NCBI GenBank assembly: GCA_964510585.1
Contig: CAZECW010000038.1
Location: forward strand, 156-32,155
Direction of reading: 5' to 3'
Length of the DNA: 32,000 bases
DNA from: an uncultured archaeon
Lineage (GTDB): Archaea > Asgardarchaeota > Jordiarchaeia > Jordiarchaeales > Jordiarchaeaceae
Positions within the stretch are counted from its first letter, which is position 1; each line of letters opens with the position of its first letter. Positions 7,512-30,270 of this stretch are shown here, one piece after another. The notes under the pieces were generated by a model. That model searched no databases. It saw only the letters and a program-made list of their open reading frames with translations, and was not told the DNA's origin. The translations under genes and the position numbers were made by a program.

Positions 7512-8333
7512 ATGCCTTATAAAAACATTATTTATGAGAAGGATGGACATGTTGTAACTATTACTCTTAACCGTCCAGAAGTCCATAATGCTCTTAATTG
7601 GGAAACGGCCCAGGAGCTCCACAAGGCCTGGCAAACATTTAGAGACGATGATGACGCCTATGTAGCCATAATGACTGGGGCAGGAGACAAGGCCTTCTGC
7701 AGCGGCTGGGACTTAAGAGACGCAGCTTTCCAAACCGGTGTACTTGAGGAACTCAAAGACTTTGACAAGTACCGAGTTCACCTATATAATTCACCCGGAC
7801 CCTGCGGCTACACTCGCCGTTTAGATATTTTCAAGCCCACTATAGGAGCCATTAATGGCTACTGTTTCGCCGCTGGCTTTGAAACCGCCCTCACCCTCGA
7901 CATCCGCATAGCCTCTGAGAATGCCGAGTTCGGCATGCTTGAGCGAAGGTGGAACATTGTTTTTGCCGACGGAGGAGCAGTAAGGCTTCCCCTAATAGTT
8001 GGGTTCGCAAAGGCTCTGGAGCTGGCCATCACGGGACGCCGTTTTGGGGCTCAGGAGGCTCTAAGTATGGGATTGGTTTCAGAGGTGGTGCCTCAAAACC
8101 GGCTTATGGATAGGGCTCGTGAACTCGCTGAGTCCATCTGTGAACTTCCCCAGGGGGCAATTCGCTCAGACAAGGAGGCCATAATAAGAGGAATAGGGCG
8201 TCCCCTAGAGGAGGCTCTGCGCATCGAGGCAGAAATGGCAATGTCTATGCTTATGAGAAGTGACTCCTTCAGCGAGGGAGCAAGGGCCTTCTTAGAGAAA
8301 CGTAAGCCAGAATGGAAAAAACACGGACTATAA
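7512..8333 (+). CDS. Enoyl-CoA hydratase/isomerase (crotonase) family
   Basis: ITLNRPEVHNA, FCSGWDL, KPTIGAING, AGFE and MLERRW motifs. GAGGTG RBS. Confidence 0.92.
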   Translation: MPYKNIIYEKDGHVVTITLNRPEVHNALNWETAQELHKAWQTFRDDDDAYVAIMTGAGDKAFCSGWDLRDAAFQTGVLEELKDFDKYRVHLYNSPGPCGYTRRLDIFKPTIGAINGYCFAAGFETALTLDIRIASENAEFGMLERRWNIVFADGGAVRLPLIVGFAKALELAITGRRFGAQEALSMGLVSEVVPQNRLMDRARELAESICELPQGAIRSDKEAIIRGIGRPLEEALRIEAEMAMSMLMRSDSFSEGARAFLEKRKPEWKKHGL

Positions 8334-8457
8334 AAAGTAATAATCTTGAGGAAAACCCAAACTATGATATGTGAAGAAGTTGACTCACAAAAAGAATGTG
8401 AGGTTTATTATTGTTTTATTTCGTTTTGTTAGATTCTCTTTTAATGGAGGTGTATTT

Positions 8458-10018
8458 GTGGAAACATTCCCTTGGTGGACTGAAAGTCAGAAAAAACTCG
8501 CAGAAGAAGTGGAAGAGTTTGTTGAGGAAAATGCTCCAAGGGCAGCCGAGGCTCTCTGGACATTCGAGAACCCCGAAGATATCGTTAAAAAGGTGGCCGA
8601 GAAGGGCTGGTTTGGAACCCTAATTCCTGAAGAGTATGGAGGAATGGGAAGCGAAGTGGGAGTTACCGGAGCATGCATCGTAGTCGAAGGACTCGCCCGT
8701 CTAGGTCCACTCACTGCAACCTATAGCACTACGTGTTTTGGGGGAACCCATCAATTGGTACGCTTAGGAACCCCGGAGCAAAAAGAAAAGTGGCTTCCCA
8801 AAATTGCTCGTGGGGAACAGTTAAACGCACTCTGCCTTACGGAACCATTCGTGGGCTCCGATGCTGCTGGCGTCACCACCAGAGCTACACGTGTTAGGGG
8901 GGTATATAATTAATGGCAAGAAAAGATTCATAAGTACTAGCGGAATCGCCGATGCCTATTTTGTGTATGTTAAAACTAGCGACAATCCCAGTGACAAAGC
9001 AGCATACAGACACCTTACGGGCCTCTATGTTCAGAAGGGTATGCCCGGCTTCACAGTGGAGAGAATAAATGCTCTAGGAGTCTTTGATGGGGTTCGCAAT
9101 GGGGTACTAAACTTCAACAATGTCTTTGTGCCAGAAGATAATGTGGTGGGAGGGGAAGGTATGGGGTGGATGTGTATGATTAGCGGCCTCAATCTGGAGA
9201 GAGTCCTCATAGCAGTGAGTGTAGTTTCTGGCATCAGGGAAGCCTTGAGATACTCCTACTACATGAGTCAGAGAAGAGTCCAGTTCGGCAAGCGCACCAT
9301 TGAGTTTGAAAGTAACCAGTACCGAGTAGCGGATATGATAATTGGTTACAAAACTTCCCGACTGCTAACCTACTATGCGGCTTCCCTTCTTGACAAGGGG
9401 TTGGAGCCCCTAATTGAGGCTAACAGCGCCAAGATTTACGCAACAGAAACTGCGAGGAAAGTTGCTGAAGACGCATTGCAGGTTATGGGTGGAGATGGCT
9501 TCACAAAATATTATCCTGTGGAGTCACTGCTGAGAGATGCCAAAATACTTGAGGTGGGAGGAGGCACAAACGACGTGTTAAGGCGTCTAATAGCAAACCA
9601 GGGCTGGAACATAATGAGGGATATGTTGAAGCCGCCTAGGCGCCGCGTAAGCAAAAAATTCGGAATCTCTCTCCCCTATTTCAGGAACCCACCTGAACTT
9701 GAATTACCCACAAAGTGTGGAGCCTCTGACTCAGAGGCCGTTGAGAAGGGTGTACTCTTGGCACTTGCAGAAGATTACCTTGTAAATCCCGGATTGCATA
9801 TGACTAGGGAGGAACTAATGGAGGACACAGGTTTAGACGAGGAGCGCCTAGACGAGGCCCTATTATCACTTGAGGAAAAGCAGCTTGTGGACATTTATCG
9901 CGACAAGAAGGGAGTTCTCAGACTAATAAAGGCAACCTACGCCGGACTGGATAAGGCAAGGCCTATCAACTACTATAGATGGTATCCGGAATGGGTTCGA
10001 AAAGACGAAATATTCTAG
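8458..10018 (+). pseudogene. Acyl-CoA dehydrogenase with C-terminal extension, split by a frameshift at the G6 run 8897-8902 (may be a sequencing error)
   Basis: GTG start with GGAGGTG RBS. The N-part (LCLTEPFVGSDA) joins the C-part (YIINGKKRFIS, GLNLER, RVQFGK, QVMGGDG, ILEVGGGTND) across AGGGGGG. Span is 1561 nt, i.e. 3n+1. Confidence 0.88.
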
Positions 10019-10019
10019 C

Positions 10020-10078
10020 AAAAAATTCAATATTTTTTGTGACAAAACAATTTTATACCTAAAAAATTCAATATTGAA
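10020..10078. repeat. 15-bp direct repeat AAAAAATTCAATATT (10020-10034, 10061-10075) flanking a TATA box; the second copy forms the palindrome TTCAATATTGAA
   Basis: Read directly. TATA-like TTTTATAC at 10051-10058. Confidence 0.7.
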
Positions 10079-10109
10079 GAAAATGTAACTAGGTTAAGGT
10101 TGGTTAGCT

Positions 10110-11162
10110 ATGATTAAAACTAAACTTATGGAAATGTTGGGAATTAAATATCCCATAATACAGGCTGGAATGGGTCCCTATTCAACTACCAGACTCGCCG
10201 CTGCAGTGGCCAACGCCGGAGGACTGGGAATAATAAGCGGCGTTGGTATGGGAGTTTGCAAGCTTTTGGGCGGCCAAAAATTCATGGATTATGATCCGAA
10301 AAAGAGTCCAGCTCAAAATATGAGGGAAGCCATCCACTACGTTAAAGAAGCAACCCAAAAATCTGGAGGCATATTTGGAGTAAACGTTCCAGTTGCGGTG
10401 GAATTTCGAGAAATAAGCGACGAACTAATCCAAACTGCAATCGAGGAGAGAGAAAAAGATCCGGATCTAGTCAGAAGGATGAAGGTCATAATTACATCTG
10501 CGGGAAACCCGGAACGCCACGCCGAAATGATAAAGGAGTCAGGGGTTTTGCGCTTCCACGTCTGTCCTTCCCCCTACCATGCAAAGAAGGCAGAGAAGGC
10601 TGGTGCGGACTTGGTAATCGCCAGTGGTCATGAGGGCGGGGGTCACGTGGCCCACGAGCCGGTTCACAGCATGGTTTTGATTCCCGAAGTGGTGAAGACG
10701 GTGAGTGTACCAGTTGTGGCTGCAGGTGGCTTCTGTGATGGAGCGGGGCTGGTTGCGGCGCTGGCTCTGGGGGCGGTTGGTATACAGATGGGCACGCGTT
10801 TCATAGCCACCAAGGAGAGTGACTTCCTCGACTACTACAAAGATTACACTAGGAATCTTGGCGATGTCCGAAAGACTATTGTTGCCAGGGGAGTTTTTGG
10901 CAGAATAAGATACCTGAAAACCGACGCAACTGTTGAACTTTATGAGATGGAGAGGAGGGGCTGCCCAGATGCTGAGGTTGCCGACTTTGAGATGAAGGCC
11001 ATCCAAGCGATACATTTCGGTGATCCCAAGAAGGCCGCGTTTTTCGGCGGTGAGGTTGCAGGGAGATTTTCAGACCTACCCACAGTAAAAGAACTTATGG
11101 ATAGGATAGTTAGGGAAGCAGAAGAAATCATAAGGGATAAGCTTCCAAAAGTTGTCGCATAA
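10110..11162 (+). CDS. Nitronate monooxygenase / FabK-like FMN-dependent oxidoreductase
   Basis: LGIKYPIIQAGM, LAAAVANAGGLG, GHEGGGH, PVVAAGG and GIQMGTRFIAT.ES motifs. Confidence 0.92.
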   Translation: MIKTKLMEMLGIKYPIIQAGMGPYSTTRLAAAVANAGGLGIISGVGMGVCKLLGGQKFMDYDPKKSPAQNMREAIHYVKEATQKSGGIFGVNVPVAVEFREISDELIQTAIEEREKDPDLVRRMKVIITSAGNPERHAEMIKESGVLRFHVCPSPYHAKKAEKAGADLVIASGHEGGGHVAHEPVHSMVLIPEVVKTVSVPVVAAGGFCDGAGLVAALALGAVGIQMGTRFIATKESDFLDYYKDYTRNLGDVRKTIVARGVFGRIRYLKTDATVELYEMERRGCPDAEVADFEMKAIQAIHFGDPKKAAFFGGEVAGRFSDLPTVKELMDRIVREAEEIIRDKLPKVVA

Positions 11163-11208
11163 CTATCATATTCCTCTTTTCTATTTTGGTGTTTAAGGGA
11201 GGCATTCT

Positions 11209-11991
11209 ATGAAGGATTTGAAAACAATTAAGATTCAGAAAGAGGATGGTTTGGGAATAATAACTCTTAACCGGCCTGAAAAGAGAAACGCCATTAACTT
11301 TGAAATGTTTAGTGAGATTGGAGAAGCGGCCGGCATAGTGTCTGACGATGATGAGATAAAAGCTGTCATTATAACTGGTGCAGGGCCCTCCTTCTCTGCG
11401 GGAATAGATTTCAATTCTTTTGGGCGGTTCGGAGGCATATCCTCCCGGGAATTCAGGAACCTTGGAAGAAAGATTCAGATAGGCTGGACTAGAATTGAAA
11501 ACATTGAGAAACCAGTCATAGCTGCCATTAATGGTTCAGCAATCGGAGGCGGCTTGGAACTCGCCCTCTGCTGCGACATCCGGATAGCAGCGGACAATGC
11601 CCGCATGGGTATCCCAGAGGTTTGCATAGGCATCGTACCTGATCTGGGAGGAGCTCAGAGGCTTCCCAGAATAATTGGGTTGGGAAGAGCTAAGGAACTC
11701 ATATTCACGGGCAGAATCATAGATGCCCAGGAAGCTGAGAGAATAGGGCTGGTAAACAGGGTGGTTCCCACAGAAAAACTCATGGACTCAGCCAAAGAGT
11801 TAGCGAGAGAAATCATGGATAACGGTTTAATCGCGGTTGGCCTTGCCAAAAAAATCGCCAACAAGTCCCTAGAAGTCGATATGGAAACCATACTAGAATA
11901 CTCCATACTAGCTCAAGACATATGCATAAGAAACGAAAACATGGCAGAACTGTTCACCCGCTACATGCAAAAGAAGAGCAAGAAAAAATAA
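11209..11991 (+). CDS. Enoyl-CoA hydratase/isomerase family
   Basis: LNRPEKRNA, FSAGID, KPVIAAING, GGGLE and GIPE motifs. Confidence 0.92.
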   Translation: MKDLKTIKIQKEDGLGIITLNRPEKRNAINFEMFSEIGEAAGIVSDDDEIKAVIITGAGPSFSAGIDFNSFGRFGGISSREFRNLGRKIQIGWTRIENIEKPVIAAINGSAIGGGLELALCCDIRIAADNARMGIPEVCIGIVPDLGGAQRLPRIIGLGRAKELIFTGRIIDAQEAERIGLVNRVVPTEKLMDSAKELAREIMDNGLIAVGLAKKIANKSLEVDMETILEYSILAQDICIRNENMAELFTRYMQKKSKKK

Positions 11992-12265: not shown

Positions 12266-12272
12266 CAAAGAT

Positions 12273-12740
12273 TTATATGAGTTTGAAGTATTGGATATCC
12301 ATTATGTCTCCTACGGTTTTGTCCCTCCATACTGCCTGTACCTTTGCACCCACTTTAACCTGTTTTTTGACATTCTCAAGATCTGATATGTCTACTTCCC
12401 CTATGTAGTGGTGGAAGGAGCTGTCAGCGCCATCCAGTTTTATACGCGCTATTATGTAGGGGGGATTCGCGGGTTGGTTAATATAGGGATATGTGACCAG
12501 AGTCCAAGATTCAATGGTGCCCTTGTCACTGACTTGAACCCAATCCGGAATATCCACAAAACACGTGCTACAGAATTTCCTACCTGGAACAAGCACCTTA
12601 CCGCATTTGGGACATTTGCTTCCCATTATCTTCTTGTTCTTCATACCCTGAAAAAACTTTAAACCCGCTTCCCCAATCGACCAACGGTAGGGAAGTTGAA
12701 TCGCACCATACTTCACACTTTTAATTCCTTCCTCGGCCAT
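12273..12740 (-). CDS. DUF35-family Zn-ribbon + OB-fold protein
   Basis: CPKC...CSTC Zn ribbon, GTIESWTLV, and P.PPYIIARIKLDGAD...FHH motifs. Confidence 0.92.
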   Translation of the reverse strand: MAEEGIKSVKYGAIQLPYRWSIGEAGLKFFQGMKNKKIMGSKCPKCGKVLVPGRKFCSTCFVDIPDWVQVSDKGTIESWTLVTYPYINQPANPPYIIARIKLDGADSSFHHYIGEVDISDLENVKKQVKVGAKVQAVWRDKTVGDIMDIQYFKLI

Positions 12741-12761
12741 TTCATCAATCCTCCAACTTTT

Positions 12762-13931
12762 TTAAGGTGTTCTACTCAAAATCATCACACTAATGAGATG
12801 GTTAGCTCCTCCAAGACCATTACTGAAAGCTGTCTCAGCGTCGGGAATCTGGTGAGCCCCAGCTTTGCCAGTGACCTGAAGGGCAGCCTCCACCACCCTA
12901 ACCATGGCTGTGGCACCGATGGGATTAGTGCTCAACACGCCTCCCGAAGGGTCGCAGGGCAACTCACCACTCCTGGACACAATGCCTTCCTCGACAAGTT
13001 TGTATGCTTCACCCGGTTTGCAGAAGCCAAAACACTCGTAATGCATCATTTCCTGGAAAGTGAAGGGATTATACACTTCTGCCACATCCAGCTGCTTAAG
13101 GGGATTAGTGATACCCGCCATTTTGTAGGCCCGCCTAGCCACCTCTATGGTTCCCGGATTTTCCACACTATCATTATCACTAGACCAGTACTCGTTGCCA
13201 CAATAAGCAACACCCTTAACCCAAGCAGGAGTATCAGTAATTTTCCTGGCCCGCTCCTCAGAAGCATATATGATCGCGCAGGCACCATCCGATTGTGGAC
13301 ACACATCCAACAATCTAATGGGGTAACAGATTATCCTGGAATTCAGAACATCATCAACCTTAATCTTTATCTTAATATGTGCATAGGGATTGTCAAAAGC
13401 GTCCAAATGATTCCTCACCGAAACCTCAGCCGCAGCCAAACGAATCTTTTCCTCAGGAACATCGTACCTGTGCAGGTACTCGTTACTCTGCTGGGCAAAA
13501 ACTCCCGGAGCGCCAGGCACAAAAGGCCTGCTAAAGTGAGCATCACCCACAGTATTCATCGTTCCCTGAGCTTCACCCTCATACTGCTTCTCCGCCCCCA
13601 CAGCTAAAACCACATCAAACATACCTGAAGCTACATGGTAATAACCAGACTGAGCCACAGACATGCCCGTAGTTCCACAGGTAGCCACCCGCATATTAGG
13701 CTTCAACACAGCACCGGCTGCATCGTCACCCCAATAGAGGTGGGGAGCATTAACTCCCTCCATCGGTGCAGGCATAGAACCGGATACCACAGCTTCTATT
13801 TCCTCAATTGTTAAATTTGCGTCGTCTAGCGCCCTTTTCACGGCTTCATGTACCAATTCTGGGAAACTTACCTCTCTTCTTTTTCCGTGGACTGTCTGAC
13901 CCACGCCCACTACAGCTACTTTTCTAACCAT
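12762..13931 (-). CDS. SCP2-type thiolase-fold protein, Ltp3-like, canonical catalytic Cys/His absent
   Basis: VGVGQT, EGV..P.L, KP.MRVATCGTTG, CPQSDGACA, AEVYNPF and PSGGVLSTNPIGA closely parallel actinobacterial Ltp3. Confidence 0.88.
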   Translation of the reverse strand: MVRKVAVVGVGQTVHGKRREVSFPELVHEAVKRALDDANLTIEEIEAVVSGSMPAPMEGVNAPHLYWGDDAAGAVLKPNMRVATCGTTGMSVAQSGYYHVASGMFDVVLAVGAEKQYEGEAQGTMNTVGDAHFSRPFVPGAPGVFAQQSNEYLHRYDVPEEKIRLAAAEVSVRNHLDAFDNPYAHIKIKIKVDDVLNSRIICYPIRLLDVCPQSDGACAIIYASEERARKITDTPAWVKGVAYCGNEYWSSDNDSVENPGTIEVARRAYKMAGITNPLKQLDVAEVYNPFTFQEMMHYECFGFCKPGEAYKLVEEGIVSRSGELPCDPSGGVLSTNPIGATAMVRVVEAALQVTGKAGAHQIPDAETAFSNGLGGANHLISVMILSRTP

Positions 13932-13945
13932 CCAGCTTCTCCTCT

Positions 13946-15085
13946 CTACCTGCCCAAGATTGCCACCATGTGGAGCTGTCCAGCAAGTCCATGTACACTG
14001 TGCACCAGTGCGGTCTCCGCGTCTGGAACCTGTCTCTCACCCGCCTTGCCCCAGAGCTGTAGAGCAGCCTCAGCAGCCCTTATGGCACCACGGGCACAGA
14101 AGGGATTCGTAGAGAGAACTCCACCTGAGGGATTCACAGGCAACTCGCCATCCATACTGGTTACTCCATCCTTGATGAGTTTTGCACCCTCACCCCTGGA
14201 GCAGAAGCCTAATGCCTCATACCAGAGCAACTCTTGGAAAGCGTAGGGCTCACAAATCTCGGCTACATCAATTTCTTTGAGTGGATTTTTGATTCCCGCC
14301 ATTTCGTAGGCCTTTTGGCTGGCCATTTTTAATGCCCGGTTTTCCAGTATATCTCGGTCTCCCATAAAGTAGGGCTCAGCCCTCCAGTTTATTCCCTTTA
14401 TCCAGATGGGGTCGTCGGTGAACTTTTTGGCCGCCTTTTCACTGGCAAGGATTAGGGCGCAGGCACCGTCCGAAGCTGGGCAACACATAAGCTCCCTTAG
14501 GGGATAAGCCATAACCGGGGAATGCATTACGTCCTCTACTGTCGCTCTCATTTTTCGGTGCGCGTGGGGGTTAAACAAAGCATTTCTAAGATTTTTGACG
14601 GCTACCTCGGCTCCCACCTCTTCGCTGACCTTATACCGGCTCATGTACTGGTTAGCTTGAAGGGCAGCCGCCGAGATTTCTTCCAGACCTATGGGTCTCT
14701 GGTAGAAGGGATCATTATAGATGTTTGTTAACGTGGCTATGGGTGGGGCCTCGCTGCACTTAGTAATCCCTATGACCAGACAGGTGTCAAAGTGTCCGGA
14801 TCTGACTCTCATGTACCCGTAGGCTAAAGCCAGTCCGGAGTCCTCCTCAGCTTTGGTGCTGTCTTTAAGATAGCCAGCCGCGGCGTCGAAGTGGAACACG
14901 TTTGAGCAACCCATACCTTGCCAGTAGTCCGAGGACGAGGCCACAACTGTATCGAGTTCTTCTCGGGTTAAGCCAACCTTGTCCATTACGGTTTTAGTTA
15001 CTTCGAAGGCAAGTCCCCTTACCGAATCCATTAAGTTTTCTCCACATTTTTGAGCTACACCAACAATTGCCACCTTTTCAGACAT
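13946..15085 (-). CDS. SCP2-type thiolase-fold protein, Ltp4-like, canonical catalytic Cys/His absent
   Basis: SSSDYWQG, KAEEDSGLAL, DPFYQRP and PSGGVLSTNP parallel Ltp4 motifs (SGSSDYLAG, VEMDAAWAL, DPY..P). Start re-assigned to ATG 15085. Confidence 0.86.
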   Translation of the reverse strand: MSEKVAIVGVAQKCGENLMDSVRGLAFEVTKTVMDKVGLTREELDTVVASSSDYWQGMGCSNVFHFDAAAGYLKDSTKAEEDSGLALAYGYMRVRSGHFDTCLVIGITKCSEAPPIATLTNIYNDPFYQRPIGLEEISAAALQANQYMSRYKVSEEVGAEVAVKNLRNALFNPHAHRKMRATVEDVMHSPVMAYPLRELMCCPASDGACALILASEKAAKKFTDDPIWIKGINWRAEPYFMGDRDILENRALKMASQKAYEMAGIKNPLKEIDVAEICEPYAFQELLWYEALGFCSRGEGAKLIKDGVTSMDGELPVNPSGGVLSTNPFCARGAIRAAEAALQLWGKAGERQVPDAETALVHSVHGLAGQLHMVAILGR

Positions 15086-15106
15086 AAAACCACCCTTAAA
15101 CATTGT

Positions 15107-15592
15107 TTACTTTATGGGTTTGAAGTACTCGATGTCGGTTATTGCTCCCACCCTTTTCTCGGCCCACACTGCCTTGACCCGCATCCCTATTTTTACCTGG
15201 TCCTTTACCTTCTCGGGGTCGGAGAAGTCGATACCCATTACGTAGTGGTTGAACCCGGTGTCTGCGCCGTCAAGATCGATGACCGCTACGATGTAGGGAG
15301 GGTTTCTGGGCTGTCCAACAAAAGAGTAATTTACGAAGGCGTAGGTTCTTATGGTGCCTTCGTCCTTAACCTCTACCCAGTCGAATAGTTCTACGAAGTC
15401 TCGGGGGCAAAATTTTCGTCCCGGAACCAGAACCCTACCGCACTTGTGGCATTTTGTTCCCAGAATCTTTTTCTCTTTGAGTCCTTGGAAGAAGCGCAGT
15501 CCAGAGGGTCCGATGGTCCATTTGTAGGGCAGAGTAATTTCTGCTTCCCTAACAGTTTTAACCTCTTCTTGACTCAAACTTTTTTCCTCCAA
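15107..15592 (-). CDS. DUF35-family Zn-ribbon + OB-fold protein, paralog of 12273-12740
   Basis: LPYKWTIG, CHKC...CPRD, GTIRTYAFV and PPYIVAVIDLDGAD motifs. Confidence 0.92.
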   Translation of the reverse strand: MEEKSLSQEEVKTVREAEITLPYKWTIGPSGLRFFQGLKEKKILGTKCHKCGRVLVPGRKFCPRDFVELFDWVEVKDEGTIRTYAFVNYSFVGQPRNPPYIVAVIDLDGADTGFNHYVMGIDFSDPEKVKDQVKIGMRVKAVWAEKRVGAITDIEYFKPIK

Positions 15593-15732
15593 ACCTTTTA
15601 GACGATTCTAAAAACCTACCTTTTCACTAACAGGGTAAATCATGACTTTTCCCAAACAATTTTTCTAATTATCGCTGGGATGACTGCTTTTGGTGTAGGT
15701 TACTCTTTTTTCCACTTCTTTGTTTAAATGTC

Positions 15733-15740
15733 TATATAAA
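15733..15740 (-). promoter_or_regulatory. Putative TATA box (TTTATATA) for the DUF35-Ltp4-Ltp3-DUF35 operon
   Basis: Consensus TATA on the minus strand preceded by an A-rich BRE-like stretch. It implies a leader of roughly 110-120 nt. Confidence 0.45.
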
Positions 15741-15999
15741 TTTTGTTTAAAGACTTCGAAAAACCGGCGGTGATGATAAATGAAAGAATGTGGGGGGATG
15801 TTTGGATTTTTTGTTGGTTTTTTCGCTTAACTACCTATAATTTTGCCATAATTTGGAAAAGAATTCTTATAATACCTCCTTTCTTTAAAACCGCTAAAAA
15901 AGAAATTTTCTAAAATGTGGATGCCGCCTTGCGTCTTGGAGAGTTATCGAAACTTTAATATTTTTTAACCTTAAACTTTTTGATAAACAATTCTTGTAG

Positions 16000-17253
16000 A
16001 TGCTGAGTTTGACCAATATGTGGTTCCGCTATGCCAATTCCAAGCTCTTAGTGGTTTACTTTGCCAGTTTTGTAGGCCCTGTTTCGGGCAACACCGTTCT
16101 GACCCTGATACCAACATTGAAGAGCACTTTTCATACAGATGTGGGTACTGTTCTGCTTGCCATAACGGCTTTGATGGTTCCCTTCGCCTTCTTCCAGCTT
16201 TTTTCAGGCACCATATCCGATGTTTACGGCAGAAGAAAAGTTTTAGCGGCAGGTTTCCTAATATATGGTGCCGGCTTGACGCTCATCGGTTTCAGTCCCA
16301 ACTTTAACATTTGGGTGTTTCTGGGAGCAAGGTTCATTTGTGGAATAGGCTACGCATTCATCGGTCCGGTTTTGCCTGCCTGCATCGGCGACCTCACAAA
16401 AATCGAGTACCGGGGGAAAGTTATGGGAATCTACTCTTCAATGGTCACCTTTGGTACGGCTGTAGGTCCTCTGTTGGCTGGTTTCCTCGCTGATGTTTGG
16501 TGGTATATTTATTTTATGCTTGCCGGTATGGCCTTTCTATCCCTGTTTTTGGTTTGGTTTTTCCTAGGAACTGTTAATGTGCCCAAAAATGTTAGTATTC
16601 CTGTTATGAGCCAAGTTTTTCTGGATTTGAGAGAGGTTTTCTCCCACAAAAACGTATTAGTACTTTCTCTGGCCGGATTCTTCGGCTATTTGGGCTTGGC
16701 TGGTGTATCCTCTTTTCTATCCGACACTTTGTCACTGCCTCCCTTCTATTTGGATGCTGTATCTATTGGGGTGATTCTCTCCGCTTGGGGTGCTGTGGTG
16801 ATTTTCTTCGCTCCACTATCCGGATATCTGATGGACAGGTGGGGTAGGGGAAACGTGGCCTATTTGGGGATTGCTGTGAGCTTATGTGCGTTGCTTTTGC
16901 TATTCTTCTCTCAAGATTTTTGGTGGTTTATGCTCTCCACAGCCCTGTTTGGTATCGGAGGCAACCTGTTTTGGCTACCCCTAGGAACTTTGTCTGTGGA
17001 GCTAGTGCCCCAAATGAGGGGAGCTACGGCCTCTGTTTATAACAGCCTCGGCATGTTTGGCTATGCTCTTGCACCCTACCTGCTCACCCCAGTTTACAAT
17101 GATTATGGTACAAGTATGATTTCCGGCTTCCAAATCATTATCTTAATAGCGATGTTCACATTATTGTCAATGATTTTCTTTATCCGATACCTTGGAAGGC
17201 AGGAGCTTCCCGAAATACAAATAAAAAAACCAAAACCTACATTAATCCACTAA
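16000..17253 (+). CDS. MFS transporter (DHA1-like), copy 1
   Basis: About 12 hydrophobic segments, motif A GTISDVYGRRKV and second motif GYLMDRWGR. The true start may be TTG 16009, which aligns with copy 2. Confidence 0.93.
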   Translation: MLSLTNMWFRYANSKLLVVYFASFVGPVSGNTVLTLIPTLKSTFHTDVGTVLLAITALMVPFAFFQLFSGTISDVYGRRKVLAAGFLIYGAGLTLIGFSPNFNIWVFLGARFICGIGYAFIGPVLPACIGDLTKIEYRGKVMGIYSSMVTFGTAVGPLLAGFLADVWWYIYFMLAGMAFLSLFLVWFFLGTVNVPKNVSIPVMSQVFLDLREVFSHKNVLVLSLAGFFGYLGLAGVSSFLSDTLSLPPFYLDAVSIGVILSAWGAVVIFFAPLSGYLMDRWGRGNVAYLGIAVSLCALLLLFFSQDFWWFMLSTALFGIGGNLFWLPLGTLSVELVPQMRGATASVYNSLGMFGYALAPYLLTPVYNDYGTSMISGFQIIILIAMFTLLSMIFFIRYLGRQELPEIQIKKPKPTLIH

Positions 17254-17345
17254 ATGGAGGAAGTCATCTTTTAAGATATAGAAATATTAATATCGCTGTC
17301 TTTGTGTCTTTTTCTGAAGAGCATTTAGGAAAGGTTGTGTAGTGA

Positions 17346-18593
17346 ATGTCCGGTGTCTGGTCTCGATATGCCAACGCTAAGCTTTTGGTTCTCTACTTTG
17401 CAGGTTTTGTAGGCCCCCTATCTGCAAACACGGTTCTGGCTCTGGTTCCCACACTGAAAAGCACTTTTAATACGGATGTGGGTACTGTTCTGCTTGCCAT
17501 AACGGCTTTGATGGTTCCCTTCGCCTTCTTCCAGCTTTTTTCAGGCACCCTATCCGATGTTTACGGCAGAAGAAAAGTTTTGGTAGTTGGCTTCCTAATT
17601 TACGGGATAGGTTTGACTATAATTGGGTTCAGCCCAAGGTTTAGTATCTGGGTGTTTATAGGGGCTAGATTCCTCTGTGGAATAGGCTACGCATTTATTG
17701 GTCCTGTTTTGCCTGCTTGCATCGGTGACCTCACAAAAATCGAGTACCGGGGCAAAGTTATGGGGATCTACTCCTCGGTGCTCACCATGGGAATAGCGGT
17801 GGGTCCCTTATTTGCTGGCTTTTTTGCTAAAGAGTGGTGGTACATTTACTTTATGATTGCGGGAATGGCCTTTCTCTCCATGATTCTAATATGGCTCGTT
17901 TTTGGAACAATTAATACCCCCAGGAATATTACTATGCCTATTTTCAGCCAAGTTTTCACTGATCTGAAAGAGGTGTGCTCTGTTAGAAGTGTGATGGCGC
18001 TAAGCGCCGCGGGTTTTCTGGGTTACGTGGGCTTTATTGGTGTGCAATCGTTTTTATCTGATACCCTATCTCTGCCACCATTCTACCTAGACTCTGTGTC
18101 TATTGGTATGATTCTCTCCGTTGGGGGTGCTGTGGTCATCTTCTTCGCTCCACTATGCGGATACCTCACAGACCGGTTGGGAAGAGAGAGGGTAGCCTAT
18201 TTAGGCATCGCTTTGAGCATACTTTCACTTTTTCTACTATTTCTCTCCAGAGAATTTGCTGGTTTTATGGTTTCAATGGCGCTTAACGGTATTGGGAGCA
18301 ACCTGTTATGGTTGCCGCTTAACGCCCTTTCCGTGGAGCTCATACCAAAACAGAGGGGAGCTACCTCCTCAATTTACAACAGCCTTAGGTTCTCCGGCTA
18401 TGCTCTTGCACCCTACCTGCTAACCCCAGTATACGAAGATTGGGGCACCAGCACGGTATCGGGCTTTCAAATCATAATCCTAATGGCAATAATAATAGTA
18501 CTAATGATAGTTCCCCTCATCCGATACGTAGGTAAGCAAGAGCTACCCGAAATGTGTCTGGAAAAATTAGAAAAAACCACGCCCAAAAATTAA
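17346..18593 (+). CDS. MFS transporter (DHA1-like), copy 2, tandem paralog
   Basis: GTLSDVYGRRKV and GYLTDRLGR motifs; colinear and highly similar to copy 1. Confidence 0.93.
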   Translation: MSGVWSRYANAKLLVLYFAGFVGPLSANTVLALVPTLKSTFNTDVGTVLLAITALMVPFAFFQLFSGTLSDVYGRRKVLVVGFLIYGIGLTIIGFSPRFSIWVFIGARFLCGIGYAFIGPVLPACIGDLTKIEYRGKVMGIYSSVLTMGIAVGPLFAGFFAKEWWYIYFMIAGMAFLSMILIWLVFGTINTPRNITMPIFSQVFTDLKEVCSVRSVMALSAAGFLGYVGFIGVQSFLSDTLSLPPFYLDSVSIGMILSVGGAVVIFFAPLCGYLTDRLGRERVAYLGIALSILSLFLLFLSREFAGFMVSMALNGIGSNLLWLPLNALSVELIPKQRGATSSIYNSLRFSGYALAPYLLTPVYEDWGTSTVSGFQIIILMAIIIVLMIVPLIRYVGKQELPEMCLEKLEKTTPKN

Positions 18594-18674
18594 TAACACA
18601 ACCTAACTACTCCAGACAACAAATCCCACTACGCAAATTCACGCAACCTTGCTTAAGTTTGCATAAACCTTATT

Positions 18675-20261
18675 ATGGAAACTGTTTCCCTAATTGACAA
18701 TTTTACCCAAGCAGCTATGTTTAAGGAGCAGATTCACTTGCAGACAGATGGAAAAGACCAAAACATTTACCAGGCCATAAATTGTGCTTTGCATCCCCGT
18801 TCAATAGCTGTAATTGGAGCCTCACCCGACCACCTTAAGATAGGAACCTGGATACTGAGAAACATTTATCTTTTGGGCTACGAGGGTAAGCTTTTCCCCA
18901 TAAATCCCCGCTACAGTGGAGAGATATGCGGGCTGCAAACCTACCATAGCATATTTGAAGTGCCCGGAGAAGTAGACTTGGCCGTGATTGTGGTTCCCAA
19001 CGATAGGGTTTTGGATGTTTTAGGTGAATGTGCACAGAAGGGCGTGAAAGTGGCTATTCTGGTTAGCGCAGGTTTTGCGGAGTTCAGTGATGAGGGCAGA
19101 GATCTTCAAAATAAGGTAAAATCTTTCGCGAGGGATAAAGGTTTACGCTTGATAGGGCCCAACTGCTTGGGGGTTGTGAATCCTGCATATGGATTGAACA
19201 CCACTACTATGCCCATGATGCCTTCCGTGGGCACTGTGGGTTTCATTTCTCAGAGCGGTGGCTTCGCGGGGCAAACTTTCCTCACAGCTAGAAGAATCAA
19301 CTTGGGTTTCAGTAAAATAGTGAATACAGGTAACGAGGCAGATCTTGACACCACCGACTTTCTAGAATATTTTGGCGAGGATCCCCAAACCCGTGTAATT
19401 ATGATGTTTGTGGAGAGCATAAAGAGAGGGCGTCGCTTCTTGGAATTAGCCCAAAAAATATCTAGGGAGAAACCGATTCTGTGCCTAAAAGTGGGTAGAA
19501 CCGAAAGAGGTGCTAAAGCAGCCCTGTCACATACTGGGAACATCTCTGGATCCCACGAAATTTTTAAGGCAGCGATGCGCCAAGCTGGCGTTATCCTGCC
19601 CAGAAACATTGAGGAAATGTTTGAGTGGGCTTTCGCCCTGGCAAACCAGCCCCTACCCCAAGGAAACAGAATGGGAATAGTGACAAACTCTGGAGGACCA
19701 GGTGTGGCTCTAGTTGACGCCTGCCTAGAACACGGCTTAGAAGTGCCAGAACTACCCCTACAGGTTCAGAAAAGGCTTAAAGAAATCTTAGCCCCAAACG
19801 CCATAACAAAAAACCCAGTGGATTTAACCTTTGCAAGTGACTTCGGGGTATACGCCAAATGTGTAGAAATAATGTTCGAAGAAGCAGACATAGACGGAAT
19901 CCTCATCTATGGAGTCTTCGGTGAAGACATCTGGAGACACCTTCTTAATATGCCTAATCCCACCCCAAAATTTAGGGAGCGCCTGGAGAGGGTCGGCATA
20001 GAAAATCTAAAATATTGGAGCGATACTATAGCAAAAACATTCACTGAGGCTATTCCCAAAATTTTCCAAATAAGCAAAAAGTACCATAAACCCATAATGA
20101 CCGCAAGCACCTCAGCGCCTTGGGAGGACGCTGCCATAAGGTCTCTGCCCGAACACGGAATTCCCTTCTTCAGAACACCTGAGGCAGCAGCAGAAGCAAT
20201 GGCAGTAATGTTAAAATACAGCCTTCATAAGAAAAAGCAAAGTAATACAGGGACGAACTGA
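18675..20261 (+). CDS. Acyl-CoA synthetase (NDP-forming) alpha subunit, CoA-binding
   Basis: PRSIAVIGAS, RLIGPNCLG, SQSGG, GNEADL, phospho-His motif AALSHTG, TNSGGPG and NPVDL. No ATP-grasp domain. The true start may be a later Met. Confidence 0.92.
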   Translation: METVSLIDNFTQAAMFKEQIHLQTDGKDQNIYQAINCALHPRSIAVIGASPDHLKIGTWILRNIYLLGYEGKLFPINPRYSGEICGLQTYHSIFEVPGEVDLAVIVVPNDRVLDVLGECAQKGVKVAILVSAGFAEFSDEGRDLQNKVKSFARDKGLRLIGPNCLGVVNPAYGLNTTTMPMMPSVGTVGFISQSGGFAGQTFLTARRINLGFSKIVNTGNEADLDTTDFLEYFGEDPQTRVIMMFVESIKRGRRFLELAQKISREKPILCLKVGRTERGAKAALSHTGNISGSHEIFKAAMRQAGVILPRNIEEMFEWAFALANQPLPQGNRMGIVTNSGGPGVALVDACLEHGLEVPELPLQVQKRLKEILAPNAITKNPVDLTFASDFGVYAKCVEIMFEEADIDGILIYGVFGEDIWRHLLNMPNPTPKFRERLERVGIENLKYWSDTIAKTFTEAIPKIFQISKKYHKPIMTASTSAPWEDAAIRSLPEHGIPFFRTPEAAAEAMAVMLKYSLHKKKQSNTGTN

Positions 20262-23359: not shown

Positions 23360-25177
23360 CTATTCCTCCACCTCTTTGGTTTCCCTCAAGTATTCATGTA
23401 TTCTTTTAGCCACATCCTCACTTATGTTTGGCACCCTCATTATATCCTCAACTGTGGCCTTCCTCAAGTTTTCCAGAGAACCAAAATGCTTCAAAAGCGC
23501 ATTCCTCCTATTCTCCCCCACACCGGGAATAGATTCCAACAATGATTCTTTAAGTTTCTTTTCCCGAAGCTTCTTATGATAACTGAGAGCAAACCTGTGA
23601 GCCTCATCCCTCACCCTCCGAAGAAGAAATAACGCCTTTGAATCCGAAGGCAAACTAATAGGCTCAACCCTCCCCGACACATATAGGTTCTCAAACCTCT
23701 TCGCCAACCCCACAACTGGAACATTTAAACCAAGACGCTCAAGGCTCCTCAGCGCAGCATTAAGCTGCCCCACCCCCCCATCAACAAGAATAAGGTTGGG
23801 CACCACTTCACCCCTCTCCTTCAACCCCCTATATCTCCGGTAAACAATTTCCCCCATCATTTGGGGATCATCAGGACCCTTAACTGTCTTAATCCTAAAT
23901 CTCCGATAATCCTCCTTCTTCGGCCACCCATCCTCAAAAACAATGAGAGAGCCCACAGCATCCTCTCCCAAAATATTGGAAACGTCAAAAGCCTCTATCC
24001 TAACAGGAGGCTCAGGCAAGTTCAACAATTTTTGTAGGTCTCTCACAGCATACAAAGTCAACTCTCTCTCCAGCTCACTCTTCCTCATCCTCTCATTAAG
24101 AACCATTACCGCAATTTTCTTAGCATAATTTAACCGCTCCCGCTCCTCCTCCGTGAGTGGCGTACGGATCTCAACTTTTTCTCCCTTCCTCTTCTCCAAC
24201 CACTTCTCAACAAGCTCCCTATCTTCAAAGTCCCTCTCAACAACTATTTTTTCTGGAAGAACCTCCGCATCAATATAGAACTGCTTCACGAATCCCCCCA
24301 ACAACTCTTCATCTGCGGCATCACCCTTCTCCTCCCTCACGAAGTCCTTCTTGTCAACAATCCTCCCACTCTGCAGAAAAAGAAGCTCAATACAAACCCT
24401 CCTATCCAGCCTCTCTAACGCTATAATGTCAGTATCCCTAGACTTGGTGGACAAAATCTTCTGGCGACCAATGGCCTTCTCCACACCCACAATACGATCC
24501 CTAATTTTGGCAGCGTCCTCAAACCTCAACTCCTGGGAAGCCCTCTCCATCTCCAAATAAAGCTGCTCCACCAACTCCTCCCTCTCACCCGCCAAGAAAA
24601 GAAGAAGCTGCTCCACACGATTCAAATACTCTTCACGACTAATCTTCCCCACACAGGGAGCCGAACAATTATTAATATGATACTCAAGACAAGGCCTCCT
24701 CATCCTACCCATCTGCACAACACTCTCAGAACCACAAATACCAAACAGGCGCCGAATATACTTCAAATTCTCCTTAACCTTCTTAAAACGAGTGTAGGGG
24801 CCAAAGTACTTCGCCCCATCATCCACAAGTTCACGAGTAGTCAAAACCCTGGGAATCTCCTCATTCACAGTCACCTTAATATAGGGAAACTTTTTGGAGT
24901 CCTTCCAAGCCACATTATACTTGGGCTGATACTTCTTAATCAAGTCACACTCAAGAATCATAGCCTCAGTCTCATCACCAGTAACAATGTACTCCAAACT
25001 GGCAACATTATTCACCAAAGAATCCTTAGCATCAGTCTTCCTTGAAGACCCAAAGTAAGTTCTGACCCGGTTCCTGAGGTTGCGAGCCTTACCCACATAA
25101 ATAACCTTCCCATCGGCATCTCTCATAATATAAACGCCAGGTTCCTCGGGAGCCTCCTTAACACGCTGCTCCATCAA
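23360..25177 (-). CDS. uvrC: Excinuclease ABC subunit C
   Basis: GIY-YIG domain (PGVYIM...YVGKA), [29 protein letters not shown] and a C-terminal HhH. Confidence 0.97.
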
Positions 25178-27998
25178 CCTCCACCTCCAAAACTCTCTTC
25201 AGAGCCTGACCCGTATATGATGATGGCACCTTCATCACTTCTTCCGGCGTTCCCTCACAAACAATTTCGCCTCCACGATCCCCACCCTCAGGACCCAAAT
25301 CAATGATGTAATCCGCCACCTTAATCACGTCCAAGTTATGCTCAATTACAATCACCGTGTTACCCGCATCAACCAACCGATTCAAAACATCTAAAAGCTG
25401 CTGAATGTCTGCAAAGTGCAAACCTGTGGTGGGTTCATCGAGTATGTATAGTGTTTTTCCTGTGCTTTGTCTGCTTAGTTCTTTGGAGAGTTTTACTCTT
25501 TGGGCTTCTCCTCCGCTTAGTGTGGTTGCGGGTTGTCCTAGTTGGATGTAGCCGAGTCCTACGTCTTTTAGGGTTTGGAGTTTTTTCTTGATTTTTGGTA
25601 TGTTTTCGAAGAATTCTAGTGCTTCGTCTACGGTCATTTCTAGTACGTCGTGGATGTTTTTGCCTTTGTACTTTATTTCTAGGGTTTCTCTGTTGAATCT
25701 TTTTCCTTTGCAGTTTTCGCATTTGATGTACACGTCTGGGAGGAACTGCATTTCTATTTTTATGGTTCCGTTTCCTTGGCAGGCTTCGCATCTTCCGCCT
25801 CTGACGTTGAAGCTGAATCTTCCGGGTCGGTAGCCTCTCATTCTGGCTTCGGGAACTTTGGAGAAAACTTCTCTTATTTCCGTGAAGACTGTGGTGTAGG
25901 TTGCGGGGTTGGAGCGTGGCGTTCTTCCTATGGGTGATTGGTCGATCATGATTACTTTGTCTATGTTTTCCAACCCTTCTATTCCCTCATATTTTCCAGG
26001 CTTTTCTAATGAGTGGTAAAATTTCTGCGCTAGGGCTTTGTAGAGGGTTTCGTAAATTAGGCTGCTTTTGCCTGAGCCTGAGACGCCGGTTATGCAAATG
26101 AACATTCCTAGGGGAAATTTCACGTCAATGTTCTTTAGATTGTTTTGTTGGGCTCCTCTTAGAGTCAGGTATTTGCCGTTGCCTTTGCGTCGCCTTTGTG
26201 GTACTGGTATTTTGATTTCTCCAGAAAGGTATCGGCCGGTTAAGGAGTTTTTGTTGGCCATTATTTCTTCGGGGGTTCCAGCAGCTACAACCCAGCCTCC
26301 GTTTCTTCCAGCGCCGGGGCCCAAGTCTATGATGTAGTCTGCGGCTCTTATGGTGTCTTCGTCGTGTTCCACTACTATGATGGTGTTGCCTAAATCCCTT
26401 AGTTCTTTTAGGGTTTCAATTAGTCTTTTTTTGTCTCTGTAGTGGAGTCCAATTGAGGGTTCGTCTAGTATGTATATTACTCCGACGAGGCTGCTTCCTA
26501 TTTGGGTTGCGAGTCTTATTCTTTGGGCTTCTCCTCCGCTGAGGGTTCCTGCGGCTCTGTCCATTGTGATGTATTCTAGTCCCACGTTTTTTAGGAATTT
26601 TAGTCTTGACTTTATTTCTTTGAGGATTTTTTCTGCTATTATTTGTTCTCTTTCTCCGAGTTGTAGTTGGTCGAAGAATTTTTGGGCTTGTTCAACGGAC
26701 ATTTTTGTGACTTGGGCTATGTTGAGGCCTCCCACGGTTACTGCTAGGCTTTGGGGCTTTAGTCTGTCTCCTTTGCAGTGGGGGCATGGGCTCATGTCCA
26801 TGAATTTCTCCATTTCTTCTTGGATGTATTCGGATTTTGTTTCGCGGTATCTGCGTTCCAGATTGTTTATGACTCCCTCGAAGCTCCCTTCATATTCTAG
26901 GTATACTCCTCCATCCTCATTTTGGTAAATCATTCTGACTGGTTCGTGGGTTCCGTAGAGGATTATGTTGAGTTGCTCTTTTGTTAGGTTCTTTATTGGT
27001 GTGTAGATGCTGAAGCCGTACTGTTTTGCTACTGACTCCAGTTTTTTTAGGTACCAGCTTCCTGTGGGGTTGTGCCAGGGTGCTATTGCTCCTTCTGCTA
27101 GGGATAGTTCTTTGTTTGGGATTACTAGGTCGGGGTCGATTCTTCTGGTTGTTCCCAGTCCGCTGCAATAGGTGCATGCTCCTTGTGGGTTGTTGAATGA
27201 GAACATTTGGGGTGTGAGTTCTTCGAATCCCGTTCCACAATCCTCGCAGGCTAAGCGTCTGCTGTAGATGTTTTCCTTCTCCTCGTTTATTAGAATTTTT
27301 ACAACGTCTCCGAATTTGAGGCAGGTTTCAACGGAGTCGCTTAGTGTTTTTTGGATGTTTGGCTCGATGACTAGTCTATCTACTACCAAGTCTATGTCGT
27401 GTTTCTTGTTTTTGTCGAGTATAATCTCTTCCTCAAGGTCTCTTATTTCTCCGTCTATTCTGACTCTGGCGAAGCCTTCGTTTTTGAGGTTTTCTAGGAC
27501 TTTGCGGTATTCTCCCTTTCTCCCCTTAACTATGGGTGCCAATATTTGTATTCTGGTTCCTTCTGGGAGGCTCATTATTCGGTCTACTATTTGTTCTGTG
27601 GTGAGTTGTGTGATTTCTTTTCCGCATTTCCAGCAGTGTGGGGTTCCCACTCTGGCGTAGAGTAGCCTGAGGTAATCATAAATTTCGGTTATGGTTCCAA
27701 CGGTGGATCTGGGGTTTCTGGTGGGTGGCTTCTGCTCTATGGATATTGCGGGGGACAGTCCCTCTATGTATTCTACGCTGGGTTTCTCCATCATTTCTAG
27801 GAATTGGCGGGCGTAGGAGGATAGGGATTCAATGTATCTCCTTTGTCCCTCCGCGTATATTGTGTCGAATGCCAGTGAGGATTTTCCAGAACCGCTGAGT
27901 CCAGTTATTACCACTAGTTTGTCGCGGGGGATTTCCACGTCAATGTTTTTGAGGTTGTGCTCTGATGCTCCTTTAACAATTATTTTGTCTTTACCCAT
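25158..27998 (-). CDS. uvrA: Excinuclease ABC subunit A
   Basis: Two ABC cassettes ([26 protein letters not shown] twice, LDEP) and Zn fingers. Confidence 0.98.
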
Positions 27999-28001
27999 GT
28001 T

Positions 28002-29957: not shown

Positions 29958-30270
29958 CTTCCCAAAGGCTCCTTCCACAATCAATTCAAACAGTAAAATT
30001 TGAAACAAATAAATATTAGGATTTGAATCAAAAAATATTAATTGAAAAATCCAGAAATAAAAAACACCGGCAAATTGATGAATATTCCTTCCAAAAATTT
30101 GTATGATGTAAAATCATTCGAAGTCTAAAAAAGGAGACAGCTACAAGGCTCCTCGCGGTTTAAAGCTTAGAGAAAAGGACTCCCATAAACCTACATCACT
30201 CAAAAAACTGAGAAGGCGAAAATGGGAAAACCCCTTTAAATTATACAAAAATTGTGAGGGAACAAATTTA

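Follow-up and report, generated by a model that had tools for sequence, protein, structure and literature searches.

A cysteine-less thiolase-fold gene pair flanked by DUF35 genes in an Asgard archaeon belongs to the Ltp3/Ltp4-type family and may encode an acyl-CoA carbon–carbon lyase

What does an archaeon do with two adjacent thiolase-fold genes that have both lost the residues of thiolase chemistry? This question is raised by an operon within a stretch of 32,000 nucleotides (the window; positions 156 to 32,155 of contig CAZECW010000038.1, assembly GCA_964510585.1) from a hot-spring Asgard archaeon (Jordarchaeia/Freyarchaeia), the assembly of which measures 3.78 Mb and is 96% complete. The closest public contigs come from Candidatus Jordarchaeia RPF2 (99%), Freyarchaeota SQRJ_82 (98%) and Jordarchaeum madagascariense (87%). 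On the minus strand of the window, four co-directional, tightly spaced open reading frames (ORFs) follow one another: a DUF35 protein with zinc ribbon and OB fold (P0004, 15107–15592), a thiolase-fold subunit of what we call the B type, i.e. Ltp4-type (P0003, 13946–15103), a thiolase-fold subunit of the A type, i.e. Ltp3-type (P0002, 12762–13931), and a downstream DUF35 protein with a full Cys4 zinc ribbon (P0001, 12273–12740). The assignments are based on Pfam matches (Thiolase_C_1 and Thiolase_N in P0002 and P0003, zf-ChsH2 and OB_ChsH2_C in P0001 and P0004), together with alignments and a tree for the thiolase-fold pair and a DUF35 tree for P0001. A prediction made earlier from the window alone (the original prediction) had described this four-gene operon, and its arrangement and coordinates stand; its range of 14–21 bp for the gaps does not, as the intergenic distances are 3 bp (P0004–P0003), 14 bp (P0003–P0002) and 21 bp (P0002–P0001). 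The operon is an archaeal member of a known, biochemically uncharacterised Ltp3/Ltp4-type family that is widespread in anaerobic bacteria and archaea.

An alignment of P0002 and P0003 with eight thiolase-fold paralogues of the same genome that have the full xCxSG, HDCF and GHP motifs revealed the extent of the loss. In P0002 the nucleophile column is occupied by Gly86, with a Cys one residue earlier (RVAT-C-G-TTG), and in P0003 the nucleophile loop is deleted (AEEDSGLA). At the place of HDCF, P0002 has YNPF and P0003 has CEPY, and GHP has become (S)T-NP, one residue shorter, in either protein. Neither retains the nucleophilic Cys or one of the two catalytic His residues, and the earlier motif readings (VATCGTTG, AEEDSGLA and STNP, with thiolase chemistry lost) are all correct. 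We mapped Tyr294, His296 and Tyr344 of TcLtp2 onto this alignment through the Ltp2 of Nocardia farcinica, which has a YDHF motif and matches PDB 6OK1 with an E value of 5e-182. Tyr287 of P0002 shares the column of Ltp2 Tyr294, Pro289 that of the HDCF Cys, and Asn336 that of the GHP His and Ltp2 Tyr344. The Tyr of YNPF, which had been singled out as retained in the Ltp3-like copy, thus occupies the position of the catalytic base of TcLtp2; in that enzyme Tyr294 serves as base and Tyr344 as acid (PMC12329534). All four replacements (C to G, H to Y, C to P and H to N) occur in 21/21 A-clade sequences, the N. farcinica Ltp3 included. The same 21 sequences have 52 invariant columns, among them Gly86, Pro289 and, around what was once the active site, the polar residues Arg18, Thr84, His185, Tyr287, Asn336 and Arg345. 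In the B clade the HDCF column, i.e. the Tyr position, is variable. Since 49 columns are nevertheless invariant among 12 B-type orthologues and paralogues, the B subunit is not decaying.

In a maximum-likelihood tree of 45 sequences (IQ-TREE, LG+C20) the Cys-less proteins form one clade (support 91/95), within which an A clade comprises Ltp3 (85/96) and a B clade comprises Ltp4 (95/83), the placement of Ltp4 being less sure because it forms a long branch. The true thiolases of the same genome and Ltp2 are located outside the Cys-less A+B clade. Neither protein groups with Cys-containing thiolases, and the labels Ltp3-like and Ltp4-like, which P0002 and P0003 had been given before, hold at the level of the family. 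The two subunits always come as a pair, and their topologies run parallel across the six modules of this kind that the genome harbours (see below). An independent A/B duplication in actinobacteria was considered as well. Constraining the actinobacterial Ltp3 and Ltp4 to group together, a grouping named after the tree had been seen, costs 24.9 log-likelihood units and is rejected by the approximately unbiased (AU) test (p 0.014). Therefore, the A/B duplication is older than the split of the actinobacterial system from the Asgard system.

Other assignments fit less well and were discarded. A true SCP2-type or archaeal thiolase that works with a DUF35 protein should have the nucleophilic Cys, HDCF and GHP, all of which are absent here and present in at least eight paralogues of the same genome. 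An assignment to the benzoylsuccinyl-CoA (coenzyme A) thiolase BbsAB is not supported, as the BbsB/BbsA equivalog models call for 750 bits and give only 145 and 134, and the DUF35 proteins score 28–30 bits where 250 are required. A steroid aldolase of the Ltp2/Sal kind would require a catalytic dyad, of which only the Tyr is present, its partners being Pro289 and Asn336; moreover, Ltp2 lies outside the A+B clade.

The reference for the actinobacterial system was a locus of N. farcinica (NZ_LN868939.1), which we found by tblastn of annotated records and whose record also holds the Ltp2 mentioned above. It begins with an Rv3520c-type F420 oxidoreductase (TIGR03559, 508 bits) and a 340-amino-acid protein with two DUF35 OB domains, and it ends with an Ltp4-type protein (NF005924, 596 bits) followed by an Ltp3-type protein (NF006180, 750 bits). 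The N. farcinica Ltp3 shows the three signatures of subunit A: the Cys position reads T-A-G, HDCF is replaced by Y-V-P-F, and SS-NP lacks the same residue as in A. The NP deletion is also common to Ltp4 and subunit B. The pair order, Ltp4-type and then Ltp3-type, also agrees with Rv3522 and Rv3523 of Mycobacterium tuberculosis, which are accompanied by the tandem-DUF35 protein Rv3521, so that both systems have two DUF35 domains per pair. However, subunit A is only about 39–43% identical to Ltp3-type proteins and subunit B is far from Ltp4. A search of a plasmid collection gave actinobacterial Ltp3-type proteins as the nearest named relatives, at 39–43% identity and none closer. The DUF35 genes of the window are separate, flank the pair, are recent duplicates and have kept their zinc ribbons, whereas the fused actinobacterial protein gives no zinc-ribbon match. 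No Rv3520c-type F420 enzyme or sterol gene is found near the window operon, and its host is a strictly anaerobic archaeon with six such modules.

Two further systems have been assayed. Ltp2–ChsH2 (PDB 6OK1) and Sal–Shy (PDB 9MYR) are steroid side-chain retro-aldolases that use a dyad of a base Tyr (in YDHF or YDCY) and Tyr344 or Cys304. They resemble the window proteins in their Cys-less SCP2-thiolase fold, in the catalytic-base Tyr in the column of the HDCF His, and in a DUF35 partner that flanks the thiolase-fold dimer. They differ in being homodimers with the DUF35 domain fused to a hydratase, and their Tyr344/Cys304 is not conserved in the window proteins. By sequence, the closest solved structure is ST0096 of Sulfolobus tokodaii (PDB 4YZO, 'thiolase-like protein'; E values of 7.5e-47 and 1.6e-47). 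This protein is archaeal as well and has no Cys at the nucleophile position; however, it keeps both His residues (HDM, GHP) with a Ser at the Cys position and thus lacks the A/B signature.

Complex modelling was carried out with two chains, A and B. The predicted A–B heterodimer reached an ipSAE of 0.95 against 0.00 for the best control, a mark that is attained by 58/80 solved complexes and 2/110 mismatched pairs. At least 91% of the contacts recur between runs, with a partner pLDDT of 92 or more. Together with the constant pairing of the two genes, this model supports the earlier idea of a heteromer. The predicted fold is that of an SCP2 thiolase (pTM 0.89; TM 0.8–0.89 to SCP2 thiolases), but the fold search does not separate aldolase from thiolase, since thiolases, Ltp2 and Sal all match with TM scores of 0.78–0.89.

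Our preferred reading, to which we assign a probability of about 0.55, is that the operon encodes a heteromeric, retro-aldol-type acyl-CoA C–C lyase complex of the Ltp3/Ltp4 family. The two SCP2-type thiolase-fold proteins without thiolase chemistry would form the heterodimer, onto which the DUF35 zinc-ribbon/OB proteins would dock. Subunit A would be the likely catalyst, having the invariant Tyr at the base position of Ltp2/Sal, Gly instead of the Cys and Asn instead of the GHP His. Subunit B, which has lost the nucleophile loop and varies at the Tyr position, would probably be non-catalytic and shape the shared pocket. The neighbouring crotonases would make a 3-hydroxyacyl-CoA, which the complex would cleave so as to release acetyl- or propionyl-CoA together with an aldehyde or ketone, with no acyl-enzyme intermediate. 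We infer the lyase chemistry, the identity of the catalytic subunit and the stoichiometry alike.

Several observations weigh against this assignment. The base Tyr of the assayed aldolases is retained in P0002, but the second catalytic residue is absent (Tyr344 has become Asn336), so that the postulated likeness to Ltp2 as a Tyr-dependent retro-aldolase holds for one half of the dyad only. The column of Ltp2 His296 and Sal Cys304 is likewise occupied by Pro289, and other residues than in Ltp2/Sal would have to act as general acid and form the oxyanion hole. Cys85 (window about 13677–13679), the residue preceding the nucleophile position, is strictly conserved throughout the window's orthogroup, in bacteria and archaea alike. 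With regard to the family, P0002 scores 379 bits with the NCBIfam model of Ltp3 (NF006180, its best family; cut-off 514) and P0003 184 bits with that of Ltp4 (NF005924, cut-off 419), the best family of P0003 being NF006180 as well (278 bits). As these scores are under the curated cut-offs, P0002 and P0003 are not Ltp3/Ltp4 equivalogs. The interface of the A–B model is the usual thiolase dimer interface, and the good score may therefore reflect likeness to solved thiolase homodimers. Genetics speaks in favour of the assignment, since ltp3 and ltp4 are required for the degradation of C24-branched sterol side chains and their products are termed aldol-lyases in the literature, but in the literature searched we found neither an assay nor a structure of any Ltp3/Ltp4-type protein, Rv3521–Rv3523 included. 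The term 'aldol-lyase' is thus, as it appears, itself an inference. The same search yielded no characterised archaeal or anaerobic member, in agreement with the original prediction, which knew of no archaeal example. Finally, on contig C87 (locus L032, 3409–8948) the module is located directly downstream of a same-strand gene for an aldehyde:ferredoxin oxidoreductase, a family with 10 paralogues in the genome. This adjacency, which recurs in a same-genus genome only and is absent from 15 other Asgard loci with this module type, is no more than a weak hint in favour of the lyase.

How widespread is the arrangement? Four-gene modules of this kind occur six times in the genome, on contigs C38 (the window), C28, C60, C139, C27 and C87. 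In addition, there are two lone A-type genes, on C193 (23317–24510) and C12 (6645–7814), that are 74–76% identical to P0002. These have no B-type or DUF35 neighbour, one being located after a PaaK-like ligase and the other near three MFS genes, and their contexts are conserved in other Jordarchaeia. Taken together, 12 genes in modules and the two lone A-type genes are Cys-less, out of about 24 thiolase-fold genes in the genome. Database relatives of P0002 number more than 3000; the nearest 120 are 59–99% identical and include proteins of Dehalococcoidia, Deltaproteobacteria, Firmicutes, Syntrophomonadaceae and Archaeoglobus veneficus. All of the relatives that were fetched (17/17) keep ATCG(T/S)TG, YNPF and TNP.

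The unit outside the genus is a trio of B, A and one DUF35 gene. Such trios occur in Bacillota, Ammonifex, Dehalococcoidia, Deltaproteobacteria, Archaeoglobus veneficus and Hecatellales, with A proteins 60–67% and B proteins 56–60% identical to those of the window (56–59% for the bacterial B proteins). They belong to the same orthogroup, with the same motifs, ATCG(T/S)TG among them, and the same gene order. None of the trio proteins has been characterised; their annotation reads 'acetyl-CoA acetyltransferase' or 'thiolase domain-containing protein'. A 1058-amino-acid Ammonifex ORF was examined as a possible fusion to B and set aside; only its last 380 residues match anything, and it is probably an over-long ORF call. 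Orthologues of the window B protein (84–95% identical) were found in the same genus only, with 151 Asgard genomes sampled, and the next-best Asgard matches in that set belong to other module types and are 46–48% identical. The window module is common to both domains, a distribution that fits lateral transfer. The module is no speciality of archaea, as it forms one orthogroup with that of anaerobic bacteria.

Within the genus, the copy number varies. A closed, 100% complete same-genus genome gave no B-type match at an E value of 1e-70 and no match of the C87 type at 1e-90, while four other same-genus genomes have 8–11 matches each to the B-type query. Therefore, the expansion of the modules is lineage-specific within the genus. 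The C87 type is found as a single copy (55–67% identical) in 38/151 Asgard genomes, and it forms a rigid B-A-DUF35-DUF35 unit in 16/16 fetched loci.

The two DUF35 proteins of the window, P0001 and P0004, are 57% identical. Where the trios have a single DUF35 gene, the genus of the window has a pair, and the ribbon of its upstream member is altered: in P0004 the pattern is C-x2-C...C-x2-D, i.e. the fourth Cys is replaced by Asp, and the upstream copy is of this Cys3Asp type in 4/4 genomes of the genus, whereas the downstream copy and all single-copy relatives keep the Cys4 ribbon. In the DUF35 tree, P0001 and P0004 form a genus-level clade (SH-aLRT 97) nested within the single-DUF35 clade of the bacterial and archaeal trios. 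Therefore, the flanking pair arose by recent duplication, and the halves of Rv3521 have no one-to-one equivalents in it. The composition of Rv3521–Rv3522–Rv3523, which had been put forward as a match, hence agrees in the order of B and A but not in the DUF35 genes. Judging from the tree and the ribbon, P0001 is the counterpart of the single DUF35 protein in the bacterial and other archaeal trios. In Sal–Shy an unusual Cys3His ribbon shapes the substrate cleft, and by analogy the Cys3Asp change in P0004 looks like sub-functionalisation. To the known family, the present system adds a six-fold expansion of the module in one Asgard genome and a duplicated DUF35 gene with an altered ribbon.

The neighbourhoods of the modules bear on the substrate. 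The C60 module is accompanied by two crotonases, a beta-keto acid cleavage enzyme (BKACE), a CoA-transferase, a zinc-dependent alcohol dehydrogenase, two amidohydrolases, a ligase and two NMO genes; the C139 module by CoA-transferase subunits and two BKACE genes; the C28 module by methylmalonyl-CoA mutase; and the C27 module by URO-D-type and corrinoid proteins (corrinoid methyltransferases). Here as in other lineages, crotonases and acyl-CoA ligases are repeatedly found next to modules. At one Asgard locus, three modules are clustered together. Because the window module is one of six and its orthogroup is common with anaerobic bacteria, the complex would be a general tool of anaerobic CoA-ester catabolism rather than a sterol-specific one.

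BKACE genes stand next to or close to modules not only in this genome (C60, C139) but also in two other Asgard genomes and one Bacillota genome, and with them comes a different possibility. Here, the proteins would perform some other Cys-independent carbonyl chemistry on CoA esters alongside the beta-keto acid cleavage enzymes, be it direct attack of CoA on a 3-ketoacyl-CoA, a malonyl-type decarboxylation or a synthetic aldol/Claisen condensation. The absence of the residues that complete the Ltp2/Sal dyad is in line with this idea, as is the weak decarboxylase activity reported for TbSLP, which has a YDCF motif. Yet the aldolase base Tyr is the only conserved catalytic-type residue common with assayed relatives, both His residues that polarise the 3-keto thioester in thiolases are gone, and the genome has at least eight intact thiolases for the cleavage of 3-ketoacyl-CoA. 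We regard this possibility as unlikely.

Rather unlikely is the reading of the original prediction itself, in which the operon does the work of the branched-sterol system of actinobacteria, clearing sterols, hopanoids or isoprenoid chains of the alkyl branches that stop beta-oxidation. Isoprenoid lipids are abundant in archaeal habitats, the family is that of the genetically required Ltp3/Ltp4, and one Dehalococcoidia trio adjoins DXS, polyprenyl synthase and HpnH/HpnG-like genes. The latter, however, are biosynthetic and divergent, being located on the opposite strand. Steroid-ring, P450, carboxylase and Rv3520c-type genes are absent from the window and the five sister modules; of a sterol-catabolic context such as the Rv3520c-type F420 enzyme, FadD19/EchA19 and the KstR regulon, the window has nothing but generic crotonases and ligases, and linked sterol, hopanoid or carboxylase genes were found at none of the modules examined. 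The contexts of the six modules differ widely, from BKACE/CoA-transferase and methylmalonyl-CoA mutase to corrinoid methyltransferases and aldehyde oxidoreductase, and orthologous trios in Bacillota and in a metagenome stand beside amino-acid-type or BKACE genes. A sterol, hopanoid or isoprenoid substrate thus finds no support in the window or the five sister modules.

That the two subunits are pseudo-enzymes without any catalysis, serving as scaffolds that organise or regulate the other enzymes of beta-oxidation, is quite improbable. Both subunits have lost all classical thiolase residues, and DUF35 proteins are known scaffolds of thiolase and HMG-CoA synthase; but a mere scaffold accords poorly with the very high conservation across domains (56–65% identity), with the 52 invariant A-clade columns that include polar residues around the former active site, and with the block of a specific catabolic step in ltp3 or ltp4 knock-outs. 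Even less credit can be given to P0002 as a thiolase that uses Cys85 as its nucleophile: this Cys is present in all sequences of the window orthogroup and the modelled helix begins at residue 85, but the gapless alignment on both flanks sets it at position -1, the same column of true thiolases has A, F or G and that of Ltp3 and the remaining A-type modules Gly/Ala, neither of the activating His residues is left, and residues 74–85 of subunit A lie in the subunit interface of the modelled dimer.

The genes around the operon are compatible with a role in CoA-ester metabolism such as the one proposed for the retro-aldol-type complex. A convergent operon on the plus strand (7512–11991; Pfam, synteny) starts with a crotonase (7512–8333), continues with a frameshift-broken acyl-CoA dehydrogenase (8371–10018) and an NMO-family FMN enzyme (10110–11162), and ends with a second crotonase (11209–11991), all assigned by Pfam. 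The crotonase-NMO-crotonase flank is syntenic with the module across the genus (loci L014 and L016 of related genomes). In the acyl-CoA dehydrogenase, reading of the frames locates one surplus G in a G6 run (8897–8902), which yields two overlapping frames; with five Gs the protein would read ...TRATRV-RGYIINGKK.... The whole gene is absent between crotonase and NMO in L014 and L016; a sequencing error, a pseudogene and a recent insertion are all conceivable. On the other side, a divergent plus-strand operon (16000–20261; Pfam) encodes two MFS transporters and the alpha subunit of an ADP-forming acyl-CoA synthetase, a flank that is also syntenic with the module across the genus (L015, L016).

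The intergenic stretch that separates the operon from the divergent MFS genes (15593–15999) was read from the sequence. It contains, on the minus strand, a TATA-like element, TTTATATA (15733–15740), which is a candidate promoter only. For P0004, the second TTG, at 15577, is the likelier start, because it has a GGAGG 8 nt ahead and fits the orthologues of 156–157 amino acids. Contigs of a relative (about 92% identical) that span 12272–15756 were found in two hot-spring runs labelled metatranscriptomic; these are probably DNA and give no evidence of expression. Elsewhere in the window, the minus strand carries a complete set of the bacterial-type excision repair genes uvrC-uvrA-uvrB (23360–30008) in this Asgard archaeon.

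If the preferred reading of the operon as a retro-aldol-type lyase is extended, strict anaerobes, Asgard archaea among them, might run an aldolase-type variant of beta-oxidation with Cys-less A/B–DUF35 complexes, which is a speculative and, at present, unlikely scenario. A hydratase would deliver the substrate to the C–C lyase, and the free aldehyde would be oxidised by a tungsten aldehyde:ferredoxin oxidoreductase and re-activated by a ligase or CoA-transferase. If this is true, the NAD-dependent dehydrogenase and thiolase steps would be bypassed, substrates that cannot be oxidised to the 3-keto level would become accessible, and electrons would be gained as low-potential ferredoxin. Half of the 'thiolases' in Asgard fatty-acid reconstructions would then not be thiolases.

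With respect to annotation, about half of the thiolase-fold genes in this genome cannot be thiolases, while their public relatives are annotated as 'acetyl-CoA C-acetyltransferase'. Canonical beta-oxidation is taken for granted in published reconstructions of the metabolism of Jordarchaeia and other Asgard archaea, and the thiolase gene counts given there need correcting. For the Ltp3/Ltp4-type family, the thermophilic and compact four-gene version described here would make a convenient target for a first assay and a first structure.

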